The translations under genes were made by a program, and so were the position numbers. Of a stretch of 29,595 nt of DNA, positions 1,476-28,796 are shown in pieces. Position 1 is the stretch's first letter, and each line of letters starts with the position of its first letter. Source of the stretch: a virus; IMG/VR virus record IMGVR_UViG_2935656913_000002. The stretch is one strand, 5' to 3'. Under the pieces are notes generated by a model that worked only from the letters and a program-made list of their open reading frames with translations, was not told where the DNA came from and searched no databases.

Positions 1476-1492
1476 CGTAGGAGTATTATACG

Positions 1493-1506
1493 TGCAGGTG
1501 CCTGCA
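1493..1506. repeat. palindrome TGCAGGNNCCTGCA (TGCAGGTGCCTGCA), intergenic
   Basis: exact match; 2 bp upstream of a minus-strand TATAAT (1485-1490). Confidence 0.9.
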
Positions 1507-1521
1507 ATTCGCTACGGTGAG

Positions 1522-1794
1522 TTACAGGACTTGTTTCTCGGTGCATGCCGCGTACGCCGCACTAAAGCGCGCATCCGACCGACACAGGCTCTCGAACTTG
1601 TTGACGAACAGGATCACGGCCGGGTCATCGACAAGCGCGACGGTGCTGTTCAACTCGGCGGCAGCGTGGTCAACGACCTTGACGAATTCGCGGGCGAGTG
1701 CTCGCAAGTTCACGGCGTCCTGCACATCGAGCGCCACCTTGTGACGGTTGTAGGTTTCGCGGTTGCCCCAGTGAATGATGATTTCGTAAGCCAT
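1522..1794 (-). CDS. hypothetical protein (90 aa)
   Basis: AGGAG RBS before the ATG at 1794 (MAYEIII...). Confidence 0.65.
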   Translation of the reverse strand: MAYEIIIHWGNRETYNRHKVALDVQDAVNLRALAREFVKVVDHAAAELNSTVALVDDPAVILFVNKFESLCRSDARFSAAYAACTEKQVL

Positions 1795-1810
1795 GGTAGT
1801 TCTCCTGTTT

Positions 1811-1825
1811 GCCCGTTGCATGGGC
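1811..1825 (-). promoter_or_regulatory. conserved leader hairpin copy 2
   Basis: + strand GCCCGTTGCATGGGC, 4 nt upstream of the AGGAG RBS. Confidence 0.55.
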
Positions 1826-1827
1826 GC

Positions 1828-1911
1828 TTATGGTTTCTTCACAACTTGGACGATGAGTGCCCCGGCGCAGCTACCGATCAGCAGCGTCCAGAGTAGCGTT
1901 TCGGTGGCCAC
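1828..1911 (-). CDS. putative 27-aa membrane peptide
   Basis: manual translation MATETLLWTLLIGSCAGALIVQVVKKP; GTG start overlaps the upstream stop. Confidence 0.4.
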   Translation of the reverse strand: MATETLLWTLLIGSCAGALIVQVVKKP

Positions 1912-2294
1912 TACTTGCTCACGGTGTAGAACGTGATCGCGTAGACGAGATCGCGATCATCAAGTTGCTCGACTTCCGCGATGCCGTACCCGGTGATGAC
2001 CTCGCGCCGCGTGTCGGTCAGGTGCTCAAGCATCTCGCTGTACGAGCAGGAACGAATGAGCGGTCCCATCATGTGGCCGAACATCGGCTGGTACCGCGAC
2101 AACTGAATGTTGGATGTCAGCGTATCAATGAGCCGAATAACTTCCGAGCCGCTGATGGCGTAGAGCGGATCAAGGCACGTCTGCACGAAACTATCGGGCG
2201 GCATGCGCTTCGCTTCGCCCTCGTGCATCGAGGTATGGATCAGTGGGTATCTCGGGTTCGTGGCGTCCACGAAATAGGTGAGCGACGTGATCAT
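1911..2294 (-). CDS. hypothetical protein (127 aa)
   Basis: ATG at 2294 (MITSLTYF...) with GGGAG upstream and a TGATG overlap; 3' part of ORF 1911..2477. Confidence 0.6.
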   Translation of the reverse strand: MITSLTYFVDATNPRYPLIHTSMHEGEAKRMPPDSFVQTCLDPLYAISGSEVIRLIDTLTSNIQLSRYQPMFGHMMGPLIRSCSYSEMLEHLTDTRREVITGYGIAEVEQLDDRDLVYAITFYTVSK

Positions 2295-2425
2295 CAGATC
2301 GCTCCCGCCCAGATGCCGTACATGAGGCCGATGCCGCCGACGAACATCATAATCGAGATGGCGGCGAAGAATTCTTCGAGGCCGGTTTCGTGGATCGTTT
2401 CCACGACGATGTCTTTGAGGCGCAT
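2294..2425 (-). CDS. putative 43-aa membrane peptide
   Basis: manual translation MRLKDIVVETIHETGLEEFFAAISIMMFVGGIGLMYGIWAGAI; GGAG RBS. Confidence 0.5.
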   Translation of the reverse strand: MRLKDIVVETIHETGLEEFFAAISIMMFVGGIGLMYGIWAGAI

Positions 2426-2501
2426 TACAATAGCTCCGGTTAGGTGTTGCACGATGATAAGAGCACGCGCACAACACGCCCGCAGTAGGTGATTACTTGT
2501 C

Positions 2502-2606: not shown

Positions 2607-2615
2607 GACCATTCC

Positions 2616-2810: not shown

Positions 2811-2822
2811 TGTGCCCCCTAT

Positions 2823-2836
2823 TGCAGGTCCCTGTA
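2823..2836. repeat. palindrome variant TGCAGGTCCCTGTA (1 mismatch), intergenic
   Basis: 11 of 12 fixed positions match; T/A flanks as in the other copies. Confidence 0.7.
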
Positions 2837-2879
2837 AACGAAAGGCGGCGCAGCCAATCAAGACCGCGCCGCCAGTTGA

Positions 2880-3709: not shown

Positions 3710-3728
3710 AGTCTCGTCTCCTGTTGTG

Positions 3729-4839: not shown

Positions 4840-4853
4840 TGCAGGAACCCGCA
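4840..4853. repeat. palindrome variant TGCAGGAACCCGCA (1 mismatch), intergenic
   Basis: 11 of 12 fixed positions match; T/A flanks. Confidence 0.7.
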
Positions 4854-6238: not shown

Positions 6239-6252
6239 TGCAGGGGCCTGCA
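6239..6252. repeat. palindrome TGCAGGGGCCTGCA, intergenic
   Basis: exact match, immediately after the stop of 6254..6547. Confidence 0.9.
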
Positions 6253-7057: not shown

Positions 7058-7569
7058 CGGCCGAACATCCTTCGTGTAAAGCTACTCAAGTCCAGCCCGG
7101 CCGGGGGGTTACCACGTGTAACAACGTGGACCGCACCATCGGGGACTGAGGGGTCGATGACGACGGGCATACCCATAAAGTGCGTAGGTACTGTCCGGTC
7201 CTGACTGGGAATTCTTTGCCGATTTTGAATTTCTGCTCTAAGTGCATCCCCCATCGAAGGGCTTACGGCAAGGCTGTCCCCGTTGGTTGCTTCGGCCGCC
7301 GCTCGCGTAAACACCTGTAATTGTTCGCTGGTCAAGGAGATAGCGGGCAAACCACCGCCCATAGCCGCTACGGTCCGCGCCTCCATTGCGGCGAAGTCAT
7401 TCGGGGTCTCTATCGCCGCCGCTAAATCGATGCCAACTACACGTGAGGTTACCGGCCAAGGCTGACCGCGTGCAGGTTCCTGCACGGGAAGCGGCGGCGG
7501 AAGATCGTCAACGACCTTAGGTCGCGGGATAACGCTACCCTTGATGATCCGTGGCGGCAGTCTAACCAT
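7054..7569 (-). CDS. hypothetical protein with Pro-rich N-terminus (171 aa)
   Basis: ORF track; overlaps its neighbours as expected for coupled genes. Confidence 0.6.
   Translation of the reverse strand: MVRLPPRIIKGSVIPRPKVVDDLPPPLPVQEPARGQPWPVTSRVVGIDLAAAIETPNDFAAMEARTVAAMGGGLPAISLTSEQLQVFTRAAAEATNGDSLAVSPSMGDALRAEIQNRQRIPSQDRTVPTHFMGMPVVIDPSVPDGAVHVVTRGNPPAGLDLSSFTRRMFGR
7471..7484. repeat. palindrome TGCAGGTTCCTGCA, in CDS (encodes VQEPA)
   Basis: exact match. Confidence 0.9.
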
Positions 7570-8666: not shown

Positions 8667-8680
8667 TGCAGGGACCTGCA
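8667..8680. repeat. palindrome TGCAGGGACCTGCA, intergenic
   Basis: exact match, 16 bp upstream of the predicted -35. Confidence 0.9.
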
Positions 8681-9628: not shown

Positions 9629-10987
9629 CTAATACCAAAGATTACTCACCGTTTCGTGCAGCCACTTCGGCCACTCAACGTCCGCCCATTTTACATCGAT
9701 TGCTCCATGTTGTTTTACCGCGAGATGTCGCCAGACGACGCCCATATAGGCCCCGCACAGACGTAGATCGAAATGCTCCTGCACCGCTCCCGGTTGCCAT
9801 TCGGTAGGGTACCGCCGCAGCAGGGCTTTACCGGCCCATGTGTGGTTGTCGTGGGCATAGAGAGGGATGGCCGGGGCAACCCCGAGGCGCATAACGGGCG
9901 TTGGGAACGCTAGGGAAGCTTTGAGAGTGGCCGGTGGGGTATTCCCCGCACCGTAAGGCTCCCCGAGCAGGAAATCCACGAGATTGTTCAGTTCGTGGTA
10001 CCCGATACCGAGTTTGTTCGTGGCCCTGCGCTGGATGTACGCCATGAGCTTGGCGCATTCCGCACTCTTGCTGCGCGGAGAATTCATCGCCATGAGTTCG
10101 TTGATGATCCACGCCCGGTGACTGTCGATGTCCCCGGTCTTGAGTTTCTGAAGACCCTTGAGCCCGTACTGGGCAAGCGCGGCATCTTTATTAGCGATCC
10201 CGCTTTTGAGCGCCGACATGAGCGTCGGTTTGTGTTCATCGGCAATGATGTTACCGCCTTCAGCTACTTTGCGGCCGAACTCCGCGACGAGCTTGGCGTA
10301 GCCCCTCATTTCAGCCATGAGGCAGTCGTAGTGCGTCGGGATTTGCCACTTTTTCTTGGACTGGCAGAACGCCTTGATGCCGATGCACATGTTGGCGTAG
10401 TCGTGGCTCCGGTCGTCCCAGAGATAGAGATCGAGAAGAAAATCCCCCATCGTGTGATCGCGGGTCTCCTCATAAAGGATGTTGAGGAGATACTTGATAA
10501 TGCCGCGCGATCCCCGGAAATTGGCGAGCATCGTTCCCCAGAAGACCGCCCGCTCCACGTTCCCGATCCGGAGTTCCTTATGGAACGCGCTGACGACCTC
10601 GTACATGTTGTAGCGAGAACCTACCTCTTTAGAGTACGCCGCCTGCATGTCGGCTGGGCGTCCCTTCTTTTCGAGGATATCCGCCATGGCCCGGATTTTG
10701 TGCGAGCAGCATTGGCTCCGCGCCCACGCTTCGTTCTTGATATGCCACTGCCATGGGCCGCCGTTCTTGCAAGTGCAGGTACCTGCACCGAGATCGACCA
10801 GATAGAAATCCCCGTCCAGCGCCTTAGCCTTGTGTGCCGTTGACACTAGCACCTTAGACTTGCCGACGAACCCCGGATGTAGCGGCTTATACTCTGGCTG
10901 GGGCGTGTTGCTGGGTAGACGTTCCTCCGGCATGACCGGGGGCGGTGGGGCGGCTTTTCGGGGCAACGGCAGTTTGCGCAGCGCCAT
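9629..10987 (-). CDS. SWIM zinc finger fused to an MgsA/RarA C-terminal-like helical domain (no AAA+ domain)
   Basis: YLVDL...CTC...CCSH (SWIM CxC-Xn-CxH); VVSAFHKELRIGNVERAVFW resembles RarA ISAFHKSIRGSDxxAALYW; IPLYAHDNHTWAGK near the C-terminus. Alternative start at 11089. Confidence 0.65.
   Translation of the reverse strand: MALRKLPLPRKAAPPPPVMPEERLPSNTPQPEYKPLHPGFVGKSKVLVSTAHKAKALDGDFYLVDLGAGTCTCKNGGPWQWHIKNEAWARSQCCSHKIRAMADILEKKGRPADMQAAYSKEVGSRYNMYEVVSAFHKELRIGNVERAVFWGTMLANFRGSRGIIKYLLNILYEETRDHTMGDFLLDLYLWDDRSHDYANMCIGIKAFCQSKKKWQIPTHYDCLMAEMRGYAKLVAEFGRKVAEGGNIIADEHKPTLMSALKSGIANKDAALAQYGLKGLQKLKTGDIDSHRAWIINELMAMNSPRSKSAECAKLMAYIQRRATNKLGIGYHELNNLVDFLLGEPYGAGNTPPATLKASLAFPTPVMRLGVAPAIPLYAHDNHTWAGKALLRRYPTEWQPGAVQEHFDLRLCGAYMGVVWRHLAVKQHGAIDVKWADVEWPKWLHETVSNLWY
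10774..10787. repeat. palindrome TGCAGGTACCTGCA, in CDS (encodes AGTC of the SWIM finger)
   Basis: exact match. Confidence 0.9.
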
Positions 10988-11223: not shown

Positions 11224-11799
11224 TCACGGTACCGGGATTACCCCGTACTTGCCCGCGACTCGATAGTACGGGTCAACGTGCTCGATCCCTAAAAGGTCCT
11301 CGAACCGGCGCTTGGCCCTAGTTCTGGCCCGCAACAGATGCGGGTACTTGGACCGTTCGTCTGTGCCGACCTGTAGGCCCCTCGCCTTCAAATGCCAGTA
11401 CCAGTAGTAGACCGGCTGCACTTGGTGCCAGAACCAGTAGCTCCGCTCAGTGCGAGTATCGTTCTTGAGAATGATGAACGGCGGTTCGATGATGTTGAAT
11501 TCGACCCACCGCCGCAACGTCCGATCCGAGACACCGAACAGGAGCGTAAGGCTCTTGATTGTGTACTGTTTGGTGATGATGCCTTGGTAGGTGAACGGCC
11601 TGCCGTAGCACTTCAACAGGAATTGGTGCCGCGACGGGATCGACAAGGCGTTGAAGTGTCGGCTTACGGTTCTGCCGCTTCGCACCCTGTCCGGCCGCTT
11701 CGACGGGTAGAACTCAAGCTCCGCTGGATCACGGTCGCCGTAGCTTTCCCGCAACTGCTTTATGCCAGTGTTGATTTTGGCGCGGACCCGGAATGCCAT
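11224..11799 (-). CDS. MerR/excisionase-like HTH DNA-binding protein
   Basis: YTIKSLTLLFGVSDRTLRRWVEFNIIEPP; start uncertain (11799 or 11832). Confidence 0.65.
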   Translation of the reverse strand: MAFRVRAKINTGIKQLRESYGDRDPAELEFYPSKRPDRVRSGRTVSRHFNALSIPSRHQFLLKCYGRPFTYQGIITKQYTIKSLTLLFGVSDRTLRRWVEFNIIEPPFIILKNDTRTERSYWFWHQVQPVYYWYWHLKARGLQVGTDERSKYPHLLRARTRAKRRFEDLLGIEHVDPYYRVAGKYGVIPVP

Positions 11800-12082
11800 G
11801 GCTCTTGAGTATCTGAGGAATACGGAGGGCAACCGCTAGGCGGATTGCGCGCTCAACAAACGGATCGCCAAGCTTCCATTTATAGTCGCCGTCCGGACAC
11901 CTGCCCCACACTAGATACTCACGGTATGGGATCGATTTTGTGCCCCGGCACGTCTGGCAGTTGTTGGGGTAGCCCTTGCATTGCGGGCACTGTACGCGGC
12001 CCGATGGATATTGCAGGGGCCTGCAAACGTAAACAGGGCGGCGAGTGACCGCCGCCCTGATTGTTAGCTTTCGTATCGGCAC
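11729..12082 (-). CDS. small zinc-finger protein (CxxCxG...CxxCxG)
   Basis: CPQCKG...CQTCRG, DnaJ-type Cys repeats. Confidence 0.55.
   Translation of the reverse strand: MPIRKLTIRAAVTRRPVYVCRPLQYPSGRVQCPQCKGYPNNCQTCRGTKSIPYREYLVWGRCPDGDYKWKLGDPFVERAIRLAVALRIPQILKSHGIPGPRQNQHWHKAVAGKLRRP
12012..12025. repeat. palindrome TGCAGGGGCCTGCA, in CDS (encodes CRPLQ)
   Basis: exact match. Confidence 0.9.
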
Positions 12083-13284: not shown

Positions 13285-13980
13285 TTACCTCGTTGGGGTT
13301 GGGTGGGTGGTCAGCGTTGGAATTCTGAGTCGCCGGGGAGCAAGTTTTGGAAGGTTAGGCTTCGACCTGAAAATTGTCAACGGCCGTTTTATCGCGAATT
13401 CTTGTCCTCGGCTTGCAGGTACCTGCACCGCGCTATATTGCGGCAGACCGGTATGCTTTACAAGGGTAAGCAACTGGCCTTCTTGGTTTGCTACCAGATA
13501 TCGAGCTAGGCAAAACGCATCAACGACGTTTTCGTTCATGTGGACAAAGCCATAGCGCTGCTTTGCCGCGAGGGCCATATCGTTCTTTTCGAACTTGCCG
13601 GAACCCATGAGTTTCTTAACGGACCTGGGGGTAACCAAAAATACATCAAACCCGAATGTCGTCAGGGCTTGATACTTAATCATGCCGACGAGTTCCGCCC
13701 GGGTGAACGCCTTGCCAGTGTTCTTGCCGAAAGCGTAGTCCTCGATCACCACCGCCACACGACCGAACCGTTTGGCCAGTTCAAATTTGCCGATCACCTG
13801 CGTCAGGATCATGATCTGGCGCAACGGGTCTTTCAGTGGTTGGTACTCGGCCGAGCTATCGGCAATAACGACCGGCCAATCTGATGGTGTCCTGTCCCCT
13901 GCCCCGCTGCGAATGACAACCATCCCCGTATCCGTCAGGGAGCAATCAAGACCGACGATGGCGTCATAGGGATTAGGCAT
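13285..13980 (-). CDS. ruvC: RuvC-like Holliday junction resolvase (RNase H fold)
   Basis: IVGLDCSLTDTG, VVIEDY, NVVDAF catalytic pattern. Confidence 0.8.
   Translation of the reverse strand: MPNPYDAIVGLDCSLTDTGMVVIRSGAGDRTPSDWPVVIADSSAEYQPLKDPLRQIMILTQVIGKFELAKRFGRVAVVIEDYAFGKNTGKAFTRAELVGMIKYQALTTFGFDVFLVTPRSVKKLMGSGKFEKNDMALAAKQRYGFVHMNENVVDAFCLARYLVANQEGQLLTLVKHTGLPQYSAVQVPASRGQEFAIKRPLTIFRSKPNLPKLAPRRLRIPTLTTHPTPTR
13414..13427. repeat. palindrome TGCAGGTACCTGCA, in RuvC C-terminal tail (VQVPA)
   Basis: exact match. Confidence 0.9.
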
Positions 13981-15298: not shown

Positions 15299-16546
15299 CT
15301 ACGTAACCTGCCATCGTTTACGATAGATTTGGACGATCTTATCCACGATGGATAGTTCTCGATCATAGTCTTCAAGTAGGAATTGGCCGAAGGCTGGTGC
15401 GCCCGCGAATTTGCCGCCGAAAGATATTCCAGCGCTTTCGTCAAGGCTAAAACTGTTTGGTGCGCCTTGCAGTATTCCGCAGTCCAGTCCACGAGCGATA
15501 ATGGAACGTGTCTGATCGACATAAGCGACGGGTAAACCGGTGGCTTCATCGCGGATAAGTTTGAAACCACCCTCCTTAAATCGTCCGCCCGACTTGTCCT
15601 TGGTGATCTTGATAGTGTGCTCGTTCCAGAGAACCATAGTCCCCTTTTCGGCCTTCTCGCCGGGAGGCGCTTCAGCGGGTTTAGCGGCCCCCTTCTCTCC
15701 CTTCTCTTTAGTGGCATTCGTATGCTCTTTGTTCGACATTTCAATTTGCTGGGTGGTCGCGAACTCAAGAGCTTTGCCGCCCGGTAGCACGCGAGGGTCG
15801 CCAAACATAACGCCGATGGACATGCGGAATTGGTTGATATGCAGGATCAGCGGGAAGTGTCCGCGATGCCGCTCGACCAGCAAAGCCGAATTGATGCGGC
15901 GCAGGTAGTTGCCGATCAGGCGCGCGTGAATACCCGGGAGACTGTCCTCCGCGCTGCCTTGGATTTCCTTCATTGGCGTAAGGAACGCGATGCTGTCCGT
16001 GACGAGCATCGACACTTCCTTGGTATGGATCAGCGCGTCCGCGATATCCACGGCGCTTTCGCCGGTCTCGGGTTCGACCAGATGCAGTCGCTCCAGATCG
16101 ACGCCGTTCATTTTGGCCCAAGCCGGATCGAACGTGCCCTCGATATCCATGTAGACCACGAACATCTCAGGAAACATGCGCTGGATCATGGCGATGAACC
16201 GCAACGTCAGCGTCGATTTACCTGCCGACTTGTTGCCGTAAATCATCGATCCGCGAGAGAGCATGAGGCCGCCCGCGAGGCAGAGATCGACGCTCAAGAT
16301 ACCTGATCGGACGCGACCGTACATGACCTTTTCGGAACTGGCCCGCGTTATGACCGATGGACTGTAGACGTTCCTGATCTGGGCAATGACCGCCGCCAGT
16401 TCGCCGGTTACCTCAAGCTCCGTCATTTTCATGACCGGGCTGGGCTCACGCCGACGAATGCCGCCCTGCTTCGGGGGTGTTGCAGGTACCTGCACGGTAA
16501 CAGGCTTGATGATCTTGGCAGGCAACGGACGAACGATGATGCTCAT
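15299..16546 (-). CDS. recA: RecA/UvsX recombinase
   Basis: Walker A GNKSAGKST, DIEG, Walker B region TDSIA, INQFRMSIGVMFGDP...PGGKAL; GGGGAG RBS before the ATG at 16546. Confidence 0.93.
   Translation of the reverse strand: MSIIVRPLPAKIIKPVTVQVPATPPKQGGIRRREPSPVMKMTELEVTGELAAVIAQIRNVYSPSVITRASSEKVMYGRVRSGILSVDLCLAGGLMLSRGSMIYGNKSAGKSTLTLRFIAMIQRMFPEMFVVYMDIEGTFDPAWAKMNGVDLERLHLVEPETGESAVDIADALIHTKEVSMLVTDSIAFLTPMKEIQGSAEDSLPGIHARLIGNYLRRINSALLVERHRGHFPLILHINQFRMSIGVMFGDPRVLPGGKALEFATTQQIEMSNKEHTNATKEKGEKGAAKPAEAPPGEKAEKGTMVLWNEHTIKITKDKSGGRFKEGGFKLIRDEATGLPVAYVDQTRSIIARGLDCGILQGAPNSFSLDESAGISFGGKFAGAPAFGQFLLEDYDRELSIVDKIVQIYRKRWQVT
16481..16494. repeat. palindrome TGCAGGTACCTGCA, in RecA N-terminal extension (VQVPA)
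   Basis: exact match. Confidence 0.9.
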
Positions 16547-17479: not shown

Positions 17480-17983
17480 TTACTTGATCCCGAGCGTTTT
17501 TCGGATTGCAATGAAGCGTTGCTCGATCCGCTCCCTTACGATGGTGTGGTCCTTACGCAGATACGAAACTTCCTTCTGGTGTCCCCCTATTTCCTCGATA
17601 AGAACCCGGACTTCCTCAACTGAATACATGAGGTAAACGCGGGCTGTGACTGAGCGTAAGACAGGCTTCGGTACCGTGCCATGATCGACCCAGCGCCAGA
17701 AAGTCTGATAGAGAAGTTGGAGCATTTGCGCCGTCTTCGGCACGCTGAGCGCAAGCAGTTCGGCTTTCTTTCCGCTTGGCAGCAGTACTGTTGTCGGCGT
17801 TTTAATTCTATCCAAAAACGGCAGTGAGTAAAGGCAGGATTTCAGTTCAACTTTCGCCTTGCGTCGGTAGGTCCGACGTGAAAGCCGCTTGGACTTCTCG
17901 CGGTATTCCACGTCGGTGGCGTACTTCACCTTGCGCGGCTGAACCTTGACCGGGATGCTCCGAGTAAACCTCTGGATAGGCAT
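17480..17983 (-). CDS. MerR/excisionase-like HTH DNA-binding protein
   Basis: LSVPKTAQMLQLLYQTFWRWVDHGTVPKP...YSVEEV. Confidence 0.65.
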   Translation of the reverse strand: MPIQRFTRSIPVKVQPRKVKYATDVEYREKSKRLSRRTYRRKAKVELKSCLYSLPFLDRIKTPTTVLLPSGKKAELLALSVPKTAQMLQLLYQTFWRWVDHGTVPKPVLRSVTARVYLMYSVEEVRVLIEEIGGHQKEVSYLRKDHTIVRERIEQRFIAIRKTLGIK

Positions 17984-17991
17984 GTCTTACC

Positions 17992-19488
17992 TTAAAAGCT
18001 GTCTGCCGAGATATTTTGGACGGTGCCTCTTTGGTCCGCGAATGACCCCTCACGCGCTTTAGCCATGTCGAGCAATGGCTGGTACAGCGTCGGATTGTCA
18101 GGGGCAAAAAGGCTCGCCGTCTGGGCAAGCTCTGGGTATACCATAATTTCGTCTTTGATTGAATACCATTCGGGCGTCGGCTTACCTGCCAGAATGCGCA
18201 ATACACGACCGAGACCTTGTCTTACGTTCGAACGCGGCGTGAGTTCGACCCCCATATCGAGGCGATCAATATCCGCACCGGTCGCAAACTGCCCCCAAGT
18301 CGTCGCGATGATTTTGCAGGTCCCTGCAACGCGGTCCTTTTCCGCTTGCTTCATCTTGATCTTTTTGCCGGTCCTGTGGTCCTTGTACTGGCCACAAAGC
18401 AAGCCGATGTCTTCCTCGGCAACTCCGTAATCCCGCACCAGCAGATGAATGAGGACTTGGAGTTGGTCCGTCCGGTCAGACAGTCCGACCGAATTCATGC
18501 CCCGCTGGTATCCGTCCGCGATGATCCGGCATAACAGATCGTTGCGGTCCTTGAACCGCGCCAGCAGCGAAGTCATGTAGTTTTCGCTGGGGTAAGACAT
18601 GGTCCGGGGAAGCGTCTTCCGGTAAGGCACCACGAAAACCGTGGGCCGCTCGACTTCCTGCTTTGAGACCGCGCGTGGCTTACCCAGATGTAGTGTACAG
18701 ACCTTCAGTAACGCATCGCGTCTGTTAGTAGCTGTAAGACCAATGCGTACTGATGCGGGGTATCGAGCGAGGATGCGCCCCATGCTTGGGGTTCCGATGC
18801 TGTGCCATTCATCGAAGATGATGGCGCTGAAGTACTGTCGGAGGGCTCGCGGGTAGTCGCGACGGGCAAGTGAAGCCGCAACACCGAGCACGATAAGTCT
18901 GCCATCGTAGTCCATCTTGTTCTGTTGGATGTGACCGACGTATTGCTCGAACCACGCATCGCCCATCATGCCGCGAATTCGACTGCGCCACTGGTTGAGC
19001 AGATAGGTGGTCGGGACCGTGATGAGCGTCGGAGCCTGTATAGCGTTCTCGATCACGTACAGAGCGGTGATGGTCTTGCCTGTGCCGGTGCGCGCGTTGG
19101 CGACGATGTCTACCGGCTTGGGGCTGCGAACGAGCACACAAAGTTCATTCATGAAATCCTGTTGCGCCTTATCGCGCGGCCTGATCTTTCGCACGAACAA
19201 TTCCGGTCGGGGCCGCTTGAACGTCGTCAGGTTGATGAACTTGCTGATACCAAGCTTCTCGATGCCGTAGGTACGTGGGACACCGATATACCCGCGCTTG
19301 CTCAGATCGTAGCAGAGGATTTCCTCGTTGGCCGCGTCAACAACGGTTTCTTCCTCTACATCGCCCTCAAGATTGACCTCGTCTTGAGTGACGATGCGAA
19401 TGCGCAGCTTGTCCATGACAGCTTGCGCATCCACTGATCGCAGGGGCACGTAGAGCAACGCTTCAACGAACGGCTTTAGTGCCAGCAT
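17992..19488 (-). CDS. superfamily 2 DExH helicase (UvsW/Rad25-like)
   Basis: ARTGTGKT, FDEWH, LTAT, GADIDRLD, QGLGRVLR. Confidence 0.9.
   Translation of the reverse strand: MLALKPFVEALLYVPLRSVDAQAVMDKLRIRIVTQDEVNLEGDVEEETVVDAANEEILCYDLSKRGYIGVPRTYGIEKLGISKFINLTTFKRPRPELFVRKIRPRDKAQQDFMNELCVLVRSPKPVDIVANARTGTGKTITALYVIENAIQAPTLITVPTTYLLNQWRSRIRGMMGDAWFEQYVGHIQQNKMDYDGRLIVLGVAASLARRDYPRALRQYFSAIIFDEWHSIGTPSMGRILARYPASVRIGLTATNRRDALLKVCTLHLGKPRAVSKQEVERPTVFVVPYRKTLPRTMSYPSENYMTSLLARFKDRNDLLCRIIADGYQRGMNSVGLSDRTDQLQVLIHLLVRDYGVAEEDIGLLCGQYKDHRTGKKIKMKQAEKDRVAGTCKIIATTWGQFATGADIDRLDMGVELTPRSNVRQGLGRVLRILAGKPTPEWYSIKDEIMVYPELAQTASLFAPDNPTLYQPLLDMAKAREGSFADQRGTVQNISADSF
18315..18328. repeat. palindrome TGCAGGTCCCTGCA, in helicase CDS (AGTCK)
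   Basis: exact match. Confidence 0.9.
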
Positions 19489-19499: not shown

Positions 19500-20309
19500 T
19501 TAGAACGGCAGATCGTCGTTCATAACTCCACCGGCGCCGCTCGCGAAGTCTTCCGAACCAACCGTGCCGGAAGTGCTGCCGTCGATGTTGTAGATCAGCC
19601 CCATCTTCTCGGGCGAGAGACGCGGATAGACCTTCGCCATATCGAACGGCTCAGAAAGCTCGCCGTATTTCTTCAGGGTCGGTTCGTCCAACATGCGAAC
19701 GAATTCGACTTGCGAGCCGGTCGCCGGGGACTTCTTGTTGTCCCGGTGCAGCTTGATCACCATGCCGCGGAACGTCTTGTGCGTCTGGTAGAGACGTTCG
19801 AACGCCGGGATCATGGAAATCTTGACCGGATACGGACGCTTGGAGCGTGGGGTGGTCTGGCCCGCCTTCGGTCCCCTCTGGGGAGTGTACGGCCGAGGAT
19901 CGATGCACGAGAGCATCATCTCGTAGCCGCCCTTCTTGCTGAGATGGCGACACAGCGGGCAACCTTCCGGCCCGTCCGTGATGCAAACCTCGGTCTGCAC
20001 GTTGTTCTCTTCGAAACCCCACCGATGCATATAGGCGAAGTGCGGCATGGCCGGGAGCCGGGGCCGGTCGGTCAGGATGATAGTAACGCCGTTCATGCCG
20101 CCCTCGCCGGGCTTCATAGAGAATTCGAACGGTCGATTGGCGCGACGCTCGCGCTCCTCGTTCAGTGCATGGGCAACGCCGAAGCCGCCGCCAATGGTCT
20201 GGGGAGCCGGGCCGGTTCGTGCCGGGGCGCGTGTTGCAGGTGCCTGCAACGGACGGGCAGCGGGGCGAAGTGGCGCGATAAGTTTACGAGCGGGAAGCTT
20301 CAAAGCCAT
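19500..20309 (-). CDS. single-stranded DNA-binding protein (gp32-like, Zn-binding)
   Basis: H...C...CPLC; acidic C-terminal DDLPF tip; position between primase and helicase. Confidence 0.7.
   Translation of the reverse strand: MALKLPARKLIAPLRPAARPLQAPATRAPARTGPAPQTIGGGFGVAHALNEERERRANRPFEFSMKPGEGGMNGVTIILTDRPRLPAMPHFAYMHRWGFEENNVQTEVCITDGPEGCPLCRHLSKKGGYEMMLSCIDPRPYTPQRGPKAGQTTPRSKRPYPVKISMIPAFERLYQTHKTFRGMVIKLHRDNKKSPATGSQVEFVRMLDEPTLKKYGELSEPFDMAKVYPRLSPEKMGLIYNIDGSTSGTVGSEDFASGAGGVMNDDLPF
20235..20248. repeat. palindrome TGCAGGTGCCTGCA, in SSB N-terminal tail (LQAPA)
   Basis: exact match. Confidence 0.9.
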
Positions 20310-22060: not shown

Positions 22061-22618
22061 TTACCCCGCCCGCCTCACGGGAACCTTGATAACCCGCTTT
22101 GCAGTCGGGGCTTTTGCAGGTACCTGCAAAATTCCGAGACGCGGCTTGATGCCGCCAGTTGGTTTGACCATTGCGGGGAGAACGATCTCGACCCCGACCT
22201 TCGATCCGGAATTGGCGTCGTCATAACGGATGTCGGCATTCGTGCCGGAAACCATGCTGCTGATCGTGGCAACCTGATCCTCACCGATGGCGAGCTTGGC
22301 ATCCTCCTTGCCGACGCGCAGTGCGTCGAAATACTGAGTTTCCGTGATCTCTTTGGACTGCCAAAGCTGGTACCACTTCCGGGGGTCGATCCGTTCGGAC
22401 TCGGAGACCGCCCACATGAACTCGGAGCCGTCGATGACGATCTTGGTTTTTGCCGGGTAGGCTTCCGTGGTGACAAACTCTTTGAAGAGTTTCTTTGTTG
22501 CGGTGTTCGTCCGATTGAACGCATTCGTGGCGACCCGCGCCTCATCCTTGGCCGCGATCCAATCGCGCAGTTGCTTCGTGAGTGCCGTGAATTGTTTTAC
22601 GTTCTTGACCGCCGACAT
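22061..22618 (-). CDS. hypothetical protein (185 aa, MSAVKNVK...)
   Basis: GGAG RBS before the ATG at 22618; the upstream part of ORF 22061..22780 crosses a terminator. Confidence 0.7.
   Translation of the reverse strand: MSAVKNVKQFTALTKQLRDWIAAKDEARVATNAFNRTNTATKKLFKEFVTTEAYPAKTKIVIDGSEFMWAVSESERIDPRKWYQLWQSKEITETQYFDALRVGKEDAKLAIGEDQVATISSMVSGTNADIRYDDANSGSKVGVEIVLPAMVKPTGGIKPRLGILQVPAKAPTAKRVIKVPVRRAG
22115..22128. repeat. palindrome TGCAGGTACCTGCA, in C-terminal tail (LQVPA)
   Basis: exact match. Confidence 0.9.
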
Positions 22619-23042: not shown

Positions 23043-25766
23043 CTATGCTGCCTTTCGTAGTTTGATTATCCGCAGGCCGGGCTTTGGTTTTGCAGGTTCC
23101 TGCAACGCTTTGACCTGTTCGTAGGTGGTGATTTTGTTGTCGTTGAGCCATTCCTTTTTAAGCTCGATCATCTTGGCGAGGTTCATGCCGATGGACACGT
23201 CCGCGACAATCGGAATGGGCGACTTGAAGCCGAACCATTCAACGAGCGGGTTCGTTTCCATGAACCGCTTGACCGCCCTCGCCGCTTCCATCTCCCTGCC
23301 CTTCTTGGCAATGCAGATGATGGCGTCATGCACGAACCCGATGACCCGTACAAAGTCGGTCGGCAGTTCTGCGTTGATCCGCGCCAGCGCGATAAGGCCG
23401 AGATCAGAACCGAAGCCCTGCACCGGGGAATTAACCGCCTGCCGTTCGGCCGACGACGCAACGCCCTCGTCATCCACAACGACCGCAGGCAAATGGCGAA
23501 CTCGGCCATCCTCGCAGCGTACGTACTTGTGAATGCGGACGAACGCCTTGACCGCGTCATGCCACGTCTTGAGCGCACGGTACCGGCTGAAGAACGCGCT
23601 CCGGATGTGCTGGGCTTCTTGGTCGGTGTAATCGATCCCGTACTCGGTCTTGGCGTAGATAAGAAACTTCTTCCAACCCATGCCATAGATGAAACCGAAG
23701 TTCACCGCCTTGGCGCGATACCGGCCGAGCGCGAACCGTTCGGGGTCCGATACCTTGAGCGCCATGAACGCTTCAAGACTGATGCCAATGACGATTGCGG
23801 CCGTCATACAATGGATGTCGCCGCCCTCGCGGTAAATCTTGAGGAACAGTGGCTCATTGGCGAGGATGCCCGCGATCCGCAACTCTAGCTGCGAATAGTC
23901 GGCTTCCAGCAACACCCATCCATCGGGCGCTTCGAAGATGGCGCGGTATTCCTTCGCGAACTCGCCGCGCTTGGGAAAATTCTGGCCGTTGGGATCGGAC
24001 GATGCGCTGCGCCCCGTGACAGTCGCGTGCAACTTGTACGACGGCCGGATGTATTCTTGGTTGATGTATTTCCAGAAGCCGGTGGGCTCCTGCCACACGC
24101 CTTCGCTATCAAGATGCCCGTCCCTACCGATGTAGGTCGTGAGCATCTTGTCGTTCTTCGCGAACGCGATGTAGTCAGCAATGAAATCGTACTCGACCGG
24201 CTTCCCGTCAACTAGGGACGTGCCTTTGTGCTTGCCGATGAAGTACGGAAGGTGGGTCTTGGTCGATACGCTGGGGAAGCCCGTCTTCGTGAATTGTGTT
24301 GGCTTGATCTTGAGGCCGTCCGGATGCGTGAACAAGAATGCCCGCATCATCGCGTCGCGCGTGAGCTTCAACCCGACGCCGGTATTCTCGAATTCGTCCC
24401 TGATCTTCTTAGGGATGAAATTGATCAGCTTCTTGTATTCGGACGCCTGTTTCTTTGCGACCTTGACACGAAGGACTTCCAGCGCCGTGCGGTTGATCTT
24501 GAACCCGCGCTGCTCGATATCGCAGAAGGCCCGCAAAGCCGGGACAACCACTCGTCGGTAACAGTTGTAGAGCTTGGGGTCAACCTCGATCTTTGTGCGC
24601 AAGATCGCGCGAAGCTGGAATGCGCAATCGGAGTCAGCCCCGGAATAGGCAAGAATGTCCTCGGGAGGGACAAGGTCCATCCGGGCCATATCGTAGCCCT
24701 TGCGGCGGAACTCGTCCTTGTAGCCGCCCATGTCCGGCAGGTACACGCGAGCAACGTCATCGAGGGATTTGCTCAACATGTTCTCGTTCAGCATGTGAAC
24801 GAGCATCAACGTATCGTCCGCGAAGTTGGCAATCTTGATGCCCAGCTTCGCGAAGAGGATCATCCAGTCGTATTTGAGATTATGACCGCAGCACGCAATC
24901 GTCGGGTCCTCAAGGAGCAACTTGAGTTGTCGGACCAGTTTGGCACGGGTTGCCGCGTCAATCGGGTATCCCGGGTAGTCGATGGGGACGACAAAGCTCT
25001 CCCCTGCCCGGTCGGTCAATTGGACCGTGAGTACTTTTGTCTCGGGGTAGTACCAGTGCGCAAATTCATGAGCGCCAAAGGTGCTTGTCTCGGTATCGAT
25101 CGCAAGCACCTTTGGCTTACGGTCGATCATGAATTGGAGGTCGGTGCACCAACTGTAGTTGCGCTTATGGACCGGAGCGGAAATCTGGAACTTGTTCTTG
25201 ACCATGGCCGCAGCGGTGCGGAGATCAGCGGAGAATAGCTCTGCATGTTCCGGCACGCGCAGCACGTGACCAAGACCGAGCATCGGCATGACGGGCACGC
25301 CAAGCGTTTCGTCATCAATGGCGACGCCGCGAAGCTTCGTGATCTTAGCCGGGCGATTGAGTACCTGACGTATAGCCGCCTTGCCTTGGGCAATGATCAA
25401 CCGGGGCTTCAGCGCGCGAAACGCCTCCATGAACTTGGGGTGATCGTTCTTGATCGCCTTGCCCAGTTTGGAGTCACTTTTCCACGTGACATCGTCGATG
25501 GGGTTGCATGCGCTGACAAAGCAAACGTCCTTGCCCTCGATCCCGGCCGCTTTCATATACGGGGCGAGTTGATTGAGCATCCGCGCCGTCATGGGCTTGG
25601 GCCTGTCGTCAAAGCTTTCGTTCACGTTGACGATGGGATCGACCACGATCATGATTGGCGCAGACGAGTTGCCCTGCCACGGCAATTTGCAGGTCCCTGC
25701 AAGATCGCCGCGAGGTGCAATGGTCGCCCGCAGAACACGCGGCCTAGGAAATATTTTCAGCGGCAC
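23043..25766 (-). CDS. polA: family A DNA polymerase with N-terminal UDG-like domain and 3'-5' exonuclease
   Basis: Exo I DTET, Exo II HNLKYD, Exo III YSGAD; TGRSASSDPNGQNFP; motif A DYSQLELR; motif B RYRAKAVNFGFIYG; motif C VHD; N-terminal ~190 aa with family-4 UDG-like layout. Confidence 0.95.
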   Translation of the reverse strand: MPLKIFPRPRVLRATIAPRGDLAGTCKLPWQGNSSAPIMIVVDPIVNVNESFDDRPKPMTARMLNQLAPYMKAAGIEGKDVCFVSACNPIDDVTWKSDSKLGKAIKNDHPKFMEAFRALKPRLIIAQGKAAIRQVLNRPAKITKLRGVAIDDETLGVPVMPMLGLGHVLRVPEHAELFSADLRTAAAMVKNKFQISAPVHKRNYSWCTDLQFMIDRKPKVLAIDTETSTFGAHEFAHWYYPETKVLTVQLTDRAGESFVVPIDYPGYPIDAATRAKLVRQLKLLLEDPTIACCGHNLKYDWMILFAKLGIKIANFADDTLMLVHMLNENMLSKSLDDVARVYLPDMGGYKDEFRRKGYDMARMDLVPPEDILAYSGADSDCAFQLRAILRTKIEVDPKLYNCYRRVVVPALRAFCDIEQRGFKINRTALEVLRVKVAKKQASEYKKLINFIPKKIRDEFENTGVGLKLTRDAMMRAFLFTHPDGLKIKPTQFTKTGFPSVSTKTHLPYFIGKHKGTSLVDGKPVEYDFIADYIAFAKNDKMLTTYIGRDGHLDSEGVWQEPTGFWKYINQEYIRPSYKLHATVTGRSASSDPNGQNFPKRGEFAKEYRAIFEAPDGWVLLEADYSQLELRIAGILANEPLFLKIYREGGDIHCMTAAIVIGISLEAFMALKVSDPERFALGRYRAKAVNFGFIYGMGWKKFLIYAKTEYGIDYTDQEAQHIRSAFFSRYRALKTWHDAVKAFVRIHKYVRCEDGRVRHLPAVVVDDEGVASSAERQAVNSPVQGFGSDLGLIALARINAELPTDFVRVIGFVHDAIICIAKKGREMEAARAVKRFMETNPLVEWFGFKSPIPIVADVSIGMNLAKMIELKKEWLNDNKITTYEQVKALQEPAKPKPGLRIIKLRKAA
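23091..23104. repeat. palindrome TGCAGGTTCCTGCA, in polymerase C-terminal tail (LQEPA)
   Basis: exact match. Confidence 0.9.
25688..25701. repeat. palindrome TGCAGGTCCCTGCA, in polymerase N-terminus (AGTCK)
   Basis: exact match. Confidence 0.9.
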
Positions 25767-26395
25767 AGATAATCTACCATTTCTTCTGAGGTCATGAACG
25801 GCGTATCGCCTTTGACGTACAGCGGATGCCGTGGGTGGCGCTTAGAAGTAAACCCAAGGCACGTGATTTTATCTTCGCAACCTTCAAGCGCTTTGAGCAA
25901 CCGCAGCAGTAGCTTCCTGTGGTGATTGGCAACATTACCGTAAGCCAAAACTACGCGATGTGACATTGATGCCTGTTGCGCAATCCTCGCGAAATTATCG
26001 CGCGAAAACGGTGGCAGTCGCAATTTCTTGGGATGGAGGTCAGTGGGGTTTGTTGCCCGATAATCCATGACATTCATCTTGACCATTTCGCGAAAGCCTT
26101 CGCGCCAAGAAAACTCCATCTCACGACGAATGGTGGGATCATCAATGTTACCCGCAGCAGTCGATGGATTGTGGCCGATCCATAGAACGTTTCCTCGACC
26201 TTCACACCGTCTACGATAAAGCTTATAGCGGTAGCGCCCGCAGTCGGATAACCATGCCTGCCCTACAATCCCGGGCTGGAGGGGAAACTGTTTACTGCCT
26301 CCGGCAACGTGGTTCGGCTCCGGTGGGCTAGGCGTGAACACCTCTCCCCGGAGCCGAATAATCCGTCGCGGTAGTGGCAGAATTCTTAGTGCCAA
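25757..26395 (-). CDS. DUF1643 family protein
   Basis: SDCGRYRY.L.R, WIGHNPSTA...DDPTIRR, YRATNP, CLG...PRHPLY; probable TTG start at 26395 after GAGGA (ORF track start 26419). Confidence 0.85.
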   Translation of the reverse strand: MALRILPLPRRIIRLRGEVFTPSPPEPNHVAGGSKQFPLQPGIVGQAWLSDCGRYRYKLYRRRCEGRGNVLWIGHNPSTAAGNIDDPTIRREMEFSWREGFREMVKMNVMDYRATNPTDLHPKKLRLPPFSRDNFARIAQQASMSHRVVLAYGNVANHHRKLLLRLLKALEGCEDKITCLGFTSKRHPRHPLYVKGDTPFMTSEEMVDYLCR

Positions 26396-26955
26396 AGCAC
26401 GTCCTCGATGATCGTCCACATGGACGCCTCACTCATGGCGGTGTTGCGGTTGAACCGATTATCGGGCTCCGAGCCCATCGGCACAAGAACGCGCGCAACT
26501 CCTGCGAAGCGCTTGCCCTTCGACATGATCGTGGCAGATGGTCGGTCGGTGAACGTCTCATGGAATGCGTATGGGCGCATGTTGTACGCCTGCCCCGCCG
26601 CGACCACCTGTATGCGACGCTCCGCAATGGTGCCCCGCTTGCCGCTGTCCACGAGCACCGTATCCTCGCCGTCCCGTGTCTCGGGAGTGTAGACCTTGTA
26701 CGTCGCGTCCACTGGCGAGAGCGGGTAGACAAGCTCCATCACGCGGTTGACCACACGACCGACGAGAACCTGACTGACGAACTCGAACAGGTGATCGTGA
26801 ATGCCGGTATCGACAATCTGCCGGGGCAAACTCGGGTGGCCCCAGATGTGCAACCGCGTCCCCGGCCCGATGTCGAGTTGCAGGAAGCCGTTGCCGTGAA
26901 CACGCGGAACGTTACCGATATCGCGCAGTTCATCAATCGTCGGTTTCTCGATCAT
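26386..26955 (-). CDS. cupin-like (cysteine-dioxygenase-type HxH...H) protein
   Basis: RLHIW...IHDHLFEFVSQVLVG...GQAYNM...FHET. Confidence 0.55.
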   Translation of the reverse strand: MIEKPTIDELRDIGNVPRVHGNGFLQLDIGPGTRLHIWGHPSLPRQIVDTGIHDHLFEFVSQVLVGRVVNRVMELVYPLSPVDATYKVYTPETRDGEDTVLVDSGKRGTIAERRIQVVAAGQAYNMRPYAFHETFTDRPSATIMSKGKRFAGVARVLVPMGSEPDNRFNRNTAMSEASMWTIIEDVLWH

Positions 26956-28265
26956 ATCATCCTCGAAACATCTAGGGGTGGGGCTTCGTCGTCCTCTTCG
27001 GAGCCCGCCGATATCATATCAAAATTCACCGGCGAAAACTGGTAATTCAGGAGCATCCGGCCGAGCGTGCCTTCGCGGTTTTTCATGAGGCCGAACCAGC
27101 GCCGCGTATCCGCGTACGGTGCAAACGCCTTCGCCGCCGCCGCAACAATCGAGGATGATTGTCCGATAACATCGGTCTCACCGATCTTGGCCATGTTGAG
27201 GTGTGAGAGGGGATTGGCACCATTCTGGGAGGTGTCCCGCGTACGCACACTCTCCGCGCTTCGATTGAACTGTGTGCTCTGGATCAACGGGCGTCGGCGT
27301 TCGATGGTGATACGCTTCAAGTCTTCGATGGTGTCGCTGATCGCTTCGCGCCGCCCGTCCGAATTCTTGCGCTTCGTGGTCGGCTTCAGGAGGTAGCCCG
27401 CGTCAACGCAGATCAAGTCAGGGTCGGTAGCATCCGCGACGGCTTGCACTGTCTCGACGCTTTTCTTGAAGCCGCCGACGATCACATTGAACGGGATGCC
27501 GTTGTCCATCGTCGAAGCCATCTCAGTCATTTGATTTGAGATGAACGTCGATAGCCGCCCCGTCCGGATCATGCTGGGGTTGATCTTCGTATGGATGCCG
27601 AACAGGCGTCGGAATAGCTGGGTTGCTCCAAGCTCCATCGACACGAACAGGACATTGTACCCTGCCCGCCAAGCGGCATAAGCGAAGATCAGCATGAGAT
27701 AGGTCTTACCCACTCCAATGCGACCGACAATCGAGATCAGATCGTCCGCGAACCAGCCGCCTGTTAGCTCATCGAGGTAGTGGTAGCCTGTCGGGATGCC
27801 GCGCAGGCCGGTGGTACGGTGCGCCTCTTGGAAGTCGGCTAGAACGTGCTCCATGCCTGCACTGAGCGGCACGAAGTCGGCCGACTGTGAGTTGAACGTG
27901 CCGGACTGAAGGAGCGTCTGTCGCATGTGAGCAACGAACGCGTCCGGGTCCTTACGCTCCAACGCGTTGCGCATCTCCTCGTATGCGCCCATGCAGGCAT
28001 TGTAGAGCGCAGCGAGCCGCGCCTGATCAGTGTAATAGGCGAGCGGCTGGGCAACCTGCAACGTGGTGATGCCCGTCCCGCGCCGGAACATGTTCGGATC
28101 GGGGAACGTCCTATGACGCGTGACGTGTTCCTTGAGCCATCGGAACGCAGCGAGTTCGTCCGGCTCAATGAAGTACGTTTCCGGCGTATCACGCACGGCC
28201 GAAGTGCTGCCGCTCCTCCGCAGTGCGGAAAGCAAATTGATCGCAGTCTGTGATGCCATTACCAA
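26952..28265 (-). CDS. dnaB: DnaB-like replicative helicase
   Basis: GIPTGY..LDELTGG, Walker A GRIGVGKT, FVSMEL, ICVDAGYL, STQFNR, KNREG; start may be 28259. Confidence 0.92.
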   Translation of the reverse strand: MVMASQTAINLLSALRRSGSTSAVRDTPETYFIEPDELAAFRWLKEHVTRHRTFPDPNMFRRGTGITTLQVAQPLAYYTDQARLAALYNACMGAYEEMRNALERKDPDAFVAHMRQTLLQSGTFNSQSADFVPLSAGMEHVLADFQEAHRTTGLRGIPTGYHYLDELTGGWFADDLISIVGRIGVGKTYLMLIFAYAAWRAGYNVLFVSMELGATQLFRRLFGIHTKINPSMIRTGRLSTFISNQMTEMASTMDNGIPFNVIVGGFKKSVETVQAVADATDPDLICVDAGYLLKPTTKRKNSDGRREAISDTIEDLKRITIERRRPLIQSTQFNRSAESVRTRDTSQNGANPLSHLNMAKIGETDVIGQSSSIVAAAAKAFAPYADTRRWFGLMKNREGTLGRMLLNYQFSPVNFDMISAGSEEDDEAPPLDVSRMI

Positions 28266-28796
28266 TTAAACCGTGAGAGGACGTGAGGCTTCGTTCTGGG
28301 CCGCCCGGAAGTCCGCGCTCCACCAACCAGCGCCAAGCATTGGCTTCGACATAGAGAAGCAGTTGCGTTGGCCCCGTTCGATCCGTTCACGAAGAAACGT
28401 CTCGACCTGTAGTCTTGCGTATCCCGTGATCGGCATATCCACGCTGTCATCGTACGCCGATTGGATAAACAGCGCACCGCAGTTCACAGCGTCATCGTAC
28501 ACCGGATGATTGTCCACCGTGACCGCCGCCTCAAGGGTCGCGAGATGAACGTACAGAACGCTATCCTGCTTGAGCACGAACGCCCGCGCCATCGCAGTGA
28601 ACGCCTTGATGCGAGAAGTTGCAGGCCCCTGCAAAACGAAACCGATGCCCGCCTTGCGATCCTCGTCGTATCGGGGAGAGTTGATGTACTCCACGAGATG
28701 CGATGTGCCGGGTAGCGTCGAGAGTTTGAGTTCATACCCGGTCGGTGGAATGCGGGCATCCTTGAACATGCCAGCGTATCGCGCAACGTCATTCAT
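28266..28796 (-). CDS. DnaC/IstB-like helicase loader with degenerate ATPase motifs
   Basis: ARIP N-terminus; GIGFVLQGPATSRIK at the Walker A position; LFIQSA at Walker B; FLRERI; directly upstream of dnaB. Confidence 0.6.
   Translation of the reverse strand: MNDVARYAGMFKDARIPPTGYELKLSTLPGTSHLVEYINSPRYDEDRKAGIGFVLQGPATSRIKAFTAMARAFVLKQDSVLYVHLATLEAAVTVDNHPVYDDAVNCGALFIQSAYDDSVDMPITGYARLQVETFLRERIERGQRNCFSMSKPMLGAGWWSADFRAAQNEASRPLTV
28620..28633. repeat. palindrome TGCAGGCCCCTGCA, in DnaC-like CDS (LQGPA)
   Basis: exact match. Confidence 0.9.

Follow-up and report, generated by a model that had tools for sequence, protein, structure and literature searches.

An evenly spaced array of lineage-specific palindromes in a Bradyrhizobium prophage and its phage relatives

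Results

A palindrome recurs at even intervals across the genome

The DNA analyzed here is a stretch of 29,595 nucleotides (the window) from IMG/VR virus record IMGVR_UViG_2935656913_000002, corresponding to the minus strand of positions 71770-101364 of the 101,364-bp record. Nearly all genes of this element lie on one strand, and a full recombination set is encoded (RecA, RuvC, a second resolvase, a Cas4-type exonuclease, helicases, and SSB). Running through both genic and intergenic DNA is a short palindrome, TGCAGGNNCCTGCA, the subject of this analysis. There are 14 exact copies in the window (Table 1) and 49 across the record, along with seven one-mismatch copies in the record and at least one further exact palindrome just outside the record's end. 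The original prediction, made from the sequence of the window, had reported these 14 copies and the two one-mismatch copies at 2823 and 4840, and every position was confirmed.

The consensus, K-TGCAGG-N-N-CCTGCA-M, is a perfectly symmetric 16-bp element in which both arms are invariant. The T or G on the left and A or C on the right that had been noticed in the window are found in all 49 genome copies (left T32/G17, right A39/C10), and no position within 45 bp on either side is conserved beyond the consensus. As had been estimated, the array is far above chance: dinucleotide shuffles of the window (n = 100) gave no exact copies, compared with 14 observed, and copies with up to two mismatches numbered 17 in the window, compared with 1.2 in the shuffles.

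Table 1. Palindrome copies, candidate DNA-binding genes, and terminator hairpins in the window. The strand of palindrome copies is given as "."; genic or intergenic location follows our own and public gene calls.
Feature	Window position	Strand	Context
Exact copy, TGCAGGTGCCTGCA	1493-1506	.	Intergenic, 47 nt upstream of DUF6011-type gene (genome 99859)
One-mismatch copy, TGCAGGTCCCTGTA	2823-2836	.	Intergenic, directly after strong terminator hairpin 2873-2844
One-mismatch copy, TGCAGGAACCCGCA	4840-4853	.	Intergenic
Exact copy	6239-6252	.	Intergenic, gene end 2 nt before
Exact copy	7471-7484	.	Intergenic in own and public gene calls
Exact copy	8667-8680	.	Intergenic
Exact copy	10774-10787	.	In g120 (434-452 aa, unknown function), frame GAGTC
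Exact copy	12012-12025	.	Intergenic between g118 and g119, abuts T-tail of strong terminator hairpin 12059-12034
Exact copy	13414-13427	.	In RuvC-like gene, peptide AVQVPAS; G001 and G002 motifs at same aligned position
Exact copy	16481-16494	.	In RecA-like gene, codon 17, peptide TVQVPAT; G002 has its own motif there, VQPSAS
Exact copy	18315-18328	.	In DEAD/ResIII helicase gene, peptide RVAGTCK
Exact copy	20235-20248	.	In SSB gene, codon 20, peptide PLQAPAT
Exact copy	22115-22128	.	In g107 (185 aa; peptide here ILQVPAK), with in-place conversion in G002
Exact copy	23091-23104	.	In DNA polymerase I gene, near 3' end
Exact copy	25688-25701	.	36 nt upstream of DNA polymerase I start
Exact copy	28620-28633	.	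In g102 (176 aa), peptide LQGPA
g119, 191-aa MerR-type helix-turn-helix (HTH) protein	11224-11799	-	Candidate reader by sequence
g112, 167-aa second MerR/Xis-like HTH protein	17480-17983	-	Weaker candidate reader; recognition helix not tracking motif
g118, 396 aa	12086-13276	-	In all 11 related genomes; not supported as sequence reader
Terminator hairpin	2844-2873	-	11-12 bp stem; T-tail directly against palindrome copy
Terminator hairpin	12034-12059	-	11-12 bp stem; T-tail directly against palindrome copy

The copies are spaced at a mean of 2,004 bp, with a coefficient of variation (CV) of 0.47 genome-wide and 0.50 in the window, which bears out the quasi-regular spacing described at first. 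Random placement gives a CV of 0.98 and random gene starts 1.02; none of 20,000 random placements, and none of 20,000 random picks of 49 from the 143 gene starts, was as even as what is observed. With one-mismatch copies counted in, the largest gap is 4.1 kb. The two longest genes, which have tape-measure and tail-protein orthologues, contain copies of their own: one exact copy in the 4.4-kb g71, and one exact and one one-mismatch copy in the 4.6-kb g76.

Eight of the 14 exact window copies are intragenic (in g102, PolA, g107, SSB, the helicase, RecA, RuvC, and g120), fewer than the 11 first counted. They use two frames in the window, (L/V)QxPA six times and AGTC twice. The idea that all three frames are used holds only for the genome as a whole, where the third (CRxL) occurs once, outside the window; the peptide CRPLQ that had been put forward is a translation of the non-coding strand. 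Synonymous-codon shuffles of all genes gave a mean of 0.23 and a maximum of two in-gene copies, compared with 27 observed. All 23 peptides of the form [LVM]Q[VADEG]PA in the proteome are encoded by the palindrome. At the center, an A bias at position 8 comes mainly from coding copies, in which GNA codons specify Ala, Glu, or Gly; in intergenic copies the central-base bias (10 vs 5) is not significant.

Six genome copies (7667, 20604, 21902, 64680, 72732, and 89340) have a T-rich tract immediately upstream, and the copy at 89340 is the one beside the terminator hairpin at window 12034-12059.

The element is an integrated prophage

The same DNA is found inside a 295-kb contig of NCBI isolate assembly GCA_040547745.1. 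The first gene of the record encodes a tyrosine integrase (genome 1-1074; L005:2-1074, minus strand). To the right of the record there are two more phage-type genes and an AMP-binding gene fragment, followed by the chromosomal genes TPR_21, Der GTPase, a major facilitator superfamily transporter, and PurF. Der from this flank and Der from Bradyrhizobium canariense BTA-1 share 100% protein identity. Given the integrase, the chromosomal flank genes, and the Der identity, we conclude from sequence that a Bradyrhizobium carries this element as an integrated prophage. Two phage genes and one palindrome extend past the IMG/VR boundary, and the 99-aa AMP-binding_C gene fragment (end region L106:10500-12400) may mark the attachment site.

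The exact palindrome has no copies in three whole Bradyrhizobium genomes (24 Mb in total), none in 1.5 Mb of further Bradyrhizobium-type loci, and none in the 8.3 kb of flanking DNA from the host itself; the array ends at the prophage junction. A reversed control pattern occurs once or twice per Bradyrhizobium genome. The palindrome is consequently not a host repeat, an outcome that the original prediction had named as one that would refute it.

Each relative carries its own version of the palindrome

By DNA polymerase, the nearest cultured phages (36-43% identity) are JP1, which infects Agrobacterium; the RcF phages, represented by RcTiptonus, of Rhodobacter; RHph_I4 and L338C of Rhizobium; HJ05 of Aeromonas; and SM1 of Pseudomonas. 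The closest phages by polymerase infect Proteobacteria, and phages of Actinobacteria have a polymerase identity of only ~28%. A megablast search of phage records gave no match. Fourteen related phages or contigs each have their own version of the motif, mostly of the form TGCA-N6-TGCA (Table 2); GCAATYRATTGC matches the RcTiptonus motif. Evenness of spacing was significant (p<0.01) in six of the ten arrays tested (this phage, G001, G002, JP1, SM1, and G005) and marginal in RHph_I4 and G004.

Table 2. Motif versions in related phages and uncultured contigs.
Phage or contig	Motif	Copies
JP1	TTGCAAA-CG-TTTGCAA	33
RcTiptonus	TGCAAT-CG-ATTGCA	21 plus variants
RHph_I4 / L338C	TGCAAC-NN-GTTGCA	45 / about 47
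HJ05	TTGCAAC-YG-GTTGCAA	16
SM1	TGCAAR-CG-YTTGCA	29
G001 (uncultured)	TGCAGG-AA/TT-CCTGCA	42
L191 (uncultured)	TGCAGG-AA/TT-CCTGCA	8 in 21-kb locus
L192 (uncultured)	TTGCAGG-TA-CCTGCAA	9 in 21-kb locus; tenth has CG
L193 (uncultured)	GTGCAG-RYRY-CTGCAC	9 in 15-kb locus
G002 (uncultured)	TGCAG-MCRK-CTGCA	62
G005 (uncultured)	CGCAAG-YR-CTTGCG	17
G004 (uncultured; L094-L097)	ATAAC-N2/3-GTTAT	23 (2-bp spacer 13, 3-bp spacer 10)

One relative, G003, is complete (111 kb, with terminal repeats) and has no genome-wide array. Of its 24 GCAA-N4-TTGC sites, 16 fall in the 50-60 kb interval, and eight YGCAA-N4-TTGCR palindromes are within 500 bp of a divergent intergenic region (L090 55,190-55,680); from its sequence, this cluster looks like an ordinary operator cluster. 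At 48,670-48,810 of the same genome (L090), about 6.5 kb from the palindrome cluster, there are 11 tandem copies of a 10-bp unit, CCAAAAATCG. The region of the repeat and the palindromes may be an origin or control region, perhaps even an ancestral, local form of the array.

Sites are converted in place and turn over

At six orthologous protein positions, (L/V)QxPA in this phage corresponds to VQPSA in G002, and in each phage the peptide is encoded by its own motif. In-place conversion is also seen at the portal C-terminus, with ELQAPAR in this phage and IMQSIAA in RcTiptonus. Judging from these alignments, the motif has changed in place and the protein sequence has changed along with it. Since the palindrome is converted in place at orthologous protein positions, and since the codon shuffles agree, selection acts on the DNA and not on the peptide, as had been proposed at the outset.

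The closest relative has most of its sites at matching addresses (22 of 27, compared with nine expected); in distant relatives, which retain density and evenness, such matching is near chance. Intergenic DNA is 3- to 9-fold enriched for sites in nine of ten arrays, and intragenic copies mostly use one reading frame, the frame reading NTG-CAx in nine of ten arrays. In G005, only 6% of the DNA is non-coding; 16 of its 17 copies are intragenic, and they are still evenly spaced. Taken together, the turnover of addresses, the internal copies in long genes, and the intragenic evenness of G005 suggest that what is conserved is an even cover of the chromosome, not the control of particular genes. The array is a set of evenly spaced, strongly selected DNA sites, specific to its lineage and absent from host DNA.

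Candidate reader proteins

Families found in all or nearly all of the 11 whole genomes comprise structural and replication genes, the ParB_N-fold g50, an AAA ATPase with DUF1257 and DUF2997 proteins, g96, and g118. These core genes, together with the HTH candidates g119 and g112, were searched for a protein that might read the palindrome.

The protein g50 matches ParB_N (PF02195) at E 1e-8 and contains the ParB N-terminal domain only. ParB_N proteins are present in 11 of 11 genomes. Six-frame searches for the DNA-binding domain HTH_ParB (PF17762) gave no hit in the whole record or in nine relatives, and a full ParB with its HTH was found only in G005. We rejected g50 as the reader: it has no recognizable DNA-binding domain, and ParB_N proteins 46-48% identical to it occur in G004, which has a different palindrome, and in G003, which has no genome-wide array. 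The ParB_N gene adjoins a glycosyltransferase in this phage, JP1, and RcTiptonus, and is fused to Methyltransf_23 in SM1, HJ05, and L194 (partnership loci L006:4939-7373, L029:5625-7902, L023:91-2624, and L099:11020-12000). In SM1 and L194, the ParB_N gene comes directly after the g118 orthologue; the full ParB of G005 is two genes downstream of that orthologue.

For g118, the predicted fold has a predicted local distance difference test (pLDDT) score of 78, or 88 for the helical domain alone. It consists of a disordered, histone-H1-like tail rich in Ala, Lys, and Pro, a beta-barrel resembling Tudor/KOW folds, and a helical domain that includes an HTH-like pair. Sequence searches of Pfam and PDB with g118 gave no match. 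The idea that g118 is a split-off ParB DNA-binding domain was rejected: Spo0J/ParB structures scored only Z 6.8-7.0, below the unrelated Raf1 at Z 8.1, Foldseek gave an E of about 1, and an hhalign profile comparison gave a probability of 0.1%. The protein g118 may be a phage chromatin-type or otherwise DNA-associated protein.

Two distinct MerR/Xis-type HTH proteins, g119 and g112, are encoded in the replication/recombination module. The g119 family is large and found in viruses only (an Atlas cluster of 538 members). Its helix reads TLxR(W/L) in phages with TGCAGG sites, TI in those with TGCAG-not-G sites, and TV in those with TGCAA sites.

Discussion

The facts that shape our interpretation most are that the element is, as its flanks indicate, an integrated prophage and that each relative has a different motif. 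With moderate confidence, and arguing from sequence, we consider the palindrome to be the cognate double-stranded DNA site of a homodimeric, sequence-specific protein encoded by the phage, and the array to be a chromosome-wide set of docking points that act at short range. We infer the protein dimer, the phage origin of the reader, the short-range action, and the process that is served. The layout of a dimer-bound operator, recognized in the original prediction, is apparent in the symmetric, invariant arms and the free center. Flank positions vary independently (28 of 49 copies have complementary pairs, where independence predicts 28.9), half-sites on their own show neither enrichment nor avoidance, and the center, free in this phage, is fixed as AA/TT or TA in close relatives. 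These features fit a pair of identical protein subunits reading double-stranded DNA, not a hairpin.

Short-range coverage is ranked first because it explains the spacing best. By keeping about 50 exact copies, the phage would have a site within about 2.4 kb of every point on its 100-kb chromosome. Protein would dock or nucleate at each site and from there reach 1-2 kb by spreading, sliding, or bridging, and the sites would jointly mark the whole phage chromosome, and only phage DNA, for a genome-wide process. Protein spreading from the sites might coat, protect, or compact phage DNA alone, or license its modification. Site and reader would co-evolve as a private pair in each lineage.

Several observations weigh against this reading. 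Evenness is not significant in RcTiptonus and HJ05. The G004 spacer of either 2 or 3 bp is unusual for a rigid dimeric reader. A transcriptional role would likewise be in keeping with the intergenic enrichment and with the siting of copies beside terminators and gene starts. Moreover, the search for a reader found no protein that tracks the motif cleanly. The putative recognition helix of g118 does not follow the motif class, and g112 was rejected, its helix being nearly identical in phages with TGCAGG and ATAAC sites. For g119, the match between helix and motif parallels the phylogeny and is confounded by it; the protein is undetectable in the array-bearing RHph_I4 and HJ05, and in the array-bearing SM1 and G005 its slot is held by ParB_N genes. 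Judged by its sequence, g119 would be the first candidate reader, for this lineage only, and we put it forward tentatively and with considerable doubt.

A broader proposal, which we regard as a real possibility though short of probable, is that the array belongs to an undescribed chromosome-identity system: a private barcode every 1.5-7 kb, written even in essential genes, together with a co-evolving reader. Such a system would direct a process (protection, modification, compaction, or silencing) to phage DNA and never to that of the host, and the switching of motifs would be driven by competition between related phages. None of the roles listed in the original prediction (nuclease protection, nicks, modification, ejection or packaging, and transcription roadblocks) could be tied to the sites. 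The analogy that it drew with parS, stoperator, and Noc-type barcodes is reasonable, and two of these are considered here as explanations in their own right.

The first is immunity of the stoperator type, in which a prophage repressor would bind sites genome-wide and silence the co-oriented 100-kb genome, with motif and repressor diversifying under selection for heteroimmunity, as in the Cluster A mycobacteriophages. In those phages (e.g., L5 and Bxb1), stoperators and repressor co-evolve into immunity groups, and the density of stoperators in L5 is about one per 2 kb. The array described here likewise consists of dozens of sites, genome-wide, at about one per 2 kb, in an integrated prophage with a tyrosine integrase. 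The enrichment of sites in intergenic DNA, where many copies precede a start by 3-80 nt or closely follow a terminator, is in keeping with this explanation, as is G003, in which sites of this motif family form an operator-like cluster within a divergent control region. Immunity systems also produce motifs that are private even among close relatives. However, PF00589 tyrosine integrases were found neither in five array-bearing cultured relatives with complete genomes (JP1, RcTiptonus, RHph_I4, HJ05, and SM1) nor in G002-G005 (of these, G002, G004, and G005 carry arrays), and SM1-type phages are described as lytic (PMC10281142). Stoperators lack symmetry and follow the direction of transcription (PMC4351075, discussion), in contrast to the symmetric sites here. 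Selection on the maximum gap, internal copies in long genes, and the nearly wholly intragenic array of G005 would not be needed for silencing, and no repressor gene was recognized among the proteins scanned. We consequently view a stoperator system as a serious but doubtful explanation.

A clamp-loading system of the ParB/KorB type is improbable, though several features of these phages recall one. Here, sites resembling parS or the OB operators would load a ParB-fold NTPase clamp that slides 1-2 kb and licenses a DNA-modifying partner on phage DNA only; the partner would be the neighboring glycosyltransferase in this phage and the fused methyltransferase in SM1 and HJ05. ParB-family proteins recognize palindromes of 13-16 bp and slide away from them (PMC13229309, PMC12704722). 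In KorB (12 OB operators on plasmid RK2), ParB-parS, and Noc with its binding sites (NBS), a replicon has several such palindromes, read by dimers that act at a distance as sliding, nucleoside triphosphate-dependent clamps. The multi-copy 16-bp palindrome and the ParB_N-fold protein in every phage of the group are comparable, and even spacing would suit a limited sliding range. Phage ParB homologues have been reported to activate a DNA-modifying enzyme, a thymine dioxygenase, on double-stranded DNA (PMC13229309), and ParB_N proteins here lie beside a glycosyltransferase, are fused to Methyltransf_23, or, in G005, form a full ParB with its HTH. Yet those published phage ParBs needed no specific site (PMC13229309). 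This phage and nine relatives lack HTH_ParB, the likeness of g118 to the ParB DNA-binding domain is weak, and G003 has the pair of ParB_N and glycosyltransferase yet no genome-wide array. There are also 50 sites instead of about 10, with no ParA and no evidence of partition. By analogy, the ParB_N partnerships may keep a clamp-and-modify model alive, with the DNA-binding part missing.

Cleavage sites and RNA elements are both unlikely. If a phage endonuclease cut, nicked, or resolved the palindromes, it might initiate recombination-dependent replication or produce site-specific interruptions as in the virion DNA of T5-like and phiKMV-like phages. The phage does encode a full recombination set, and palindromes are typical targets of dimeric nucleases. 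However, no candidate nuclease is linked to the sites, the intact integrated prophage retains 49 perfect sites, and known nick sites in virion DNA are asymmetric, all of which leaves this explanation with very little probability. Least probable of all, to the point of being nearly negligible, is a transcribed hairpin acting in processing, translation, or termination: the genes are co-oriented, so every copy is transcribed, and several lie 3-24 nt before a start codon, where AGG could be a Shine-Dalgarno core, but the stem amounts to just 5-6 bp, folds at -5 to -7 kcal/mol, and in some cases gives way to another fold of lower energy, no loop can form from a 2-nt center, JP1 and G004 have A/T-rich versions that would be unstable, the flanks show no covariation or tolerance of G-U pairs, no Rfam family matches, and most copies are within reading frames.

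Three more candidates were tried and rejected. A strand-oriented signal such as Chi or the FtsK-orienting polar sequences (KOPS) does not agree with a center bias that is mostly coding-derived and half-sites that are not enriched. Promoters were rejected, as there is no fixed-distance element within 45 bp on either side and no sigma-70-like hit overlaps the sites. Repetitive extragenic palindromic (REP) sequences and MITEs (miniature inverted-repeat transposable elements) have an extragenic location, measure 20-40 bp or longer, and spread by transposition; the motif here is only 14-16 bp, with copies in frame inside genes, converted at orthologous codons, and none in the host.

In full-text literature searches, no paper describing the array was found for these phages. 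The claim of a new system was overstated in that an array of the same kind has been published. Cluster O mycobacteriophages (Corndog and relatives) have a 17-bp dyad repeat, TGTTCGGNNNCCGAACA, whose function was left unexplained by Cresawn et al. in 2015 (PMC4351075). As in the phages described here, more than 30 invariant palindromic copies with a free center occur throughout the genome; they are partly intergenic, with about one third in genes, and mostly unlinked to promoters, and the authors predicted a dimeric binder (PMC4351075). Among the genes of Cluster O phages, too, are one for an AAA ATPase and one for a protein with a ParB-like domain (PMC4351075). The Cluster O dyad differs in its sequence (TGTTCGG, compared with TGCAGG here) and in the phylum of the host. 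Its sites are denser toward one genome end, and the authors made no claim of even spacing (PMC4351075). Furthermore, the comparison covered five close genomes with one motif, and motif turnover and in-place conversion were not seen there. On these sequence comparisons, we judge the likeness to be one of kind and not of descent.

If the proposed reading is true, a whole group of 80-110-kb siphophages, with hosts in Bradyrhizobium, Rhizobium, Agrobacterium, Rhodobacter, Pseudomonas, and Aeromonas, would tell its own chromosome from that of the host by sequence alone. The proteins would bear the cost, with (L/V)QxPA inserted into the sequences of polymerase, RecA, SSB, portal, and terminase. Marking of self DNA by sequence would then stand alongside marking by base modification, and would also explain the Cluster O repeats. 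The cultured members (JP1, RcTiptonus, RHph_I4, SM1, and HJ05) make the hypothesis directly testable, and the in-place motif conversions would provide a natural series for a recognition code once the reader is known.

Two further features of the element were recorded. A 262-aa gene (genome 20621-21409; L006:1621-2409, minus strand) is the only sizeable opposite-strand gene besides the integrase. The N-terminal half of its product is rich in Pro, Thr, and Ala, with no Pfam match to the protein; the gene is conserved, and likewise inverted, in G001 and G002, and may be expressed in lysogeny. At genome 65724-69729 (L008:8724-12729), an AAA ATPase of 581 aa is followed by DUF1257 and DUF2997 proteins, a trio conserved in most of this group. 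Across the 11 related genomes, the AAA and DUF2997 genes are each present in 10, and DUF1257 in nine.

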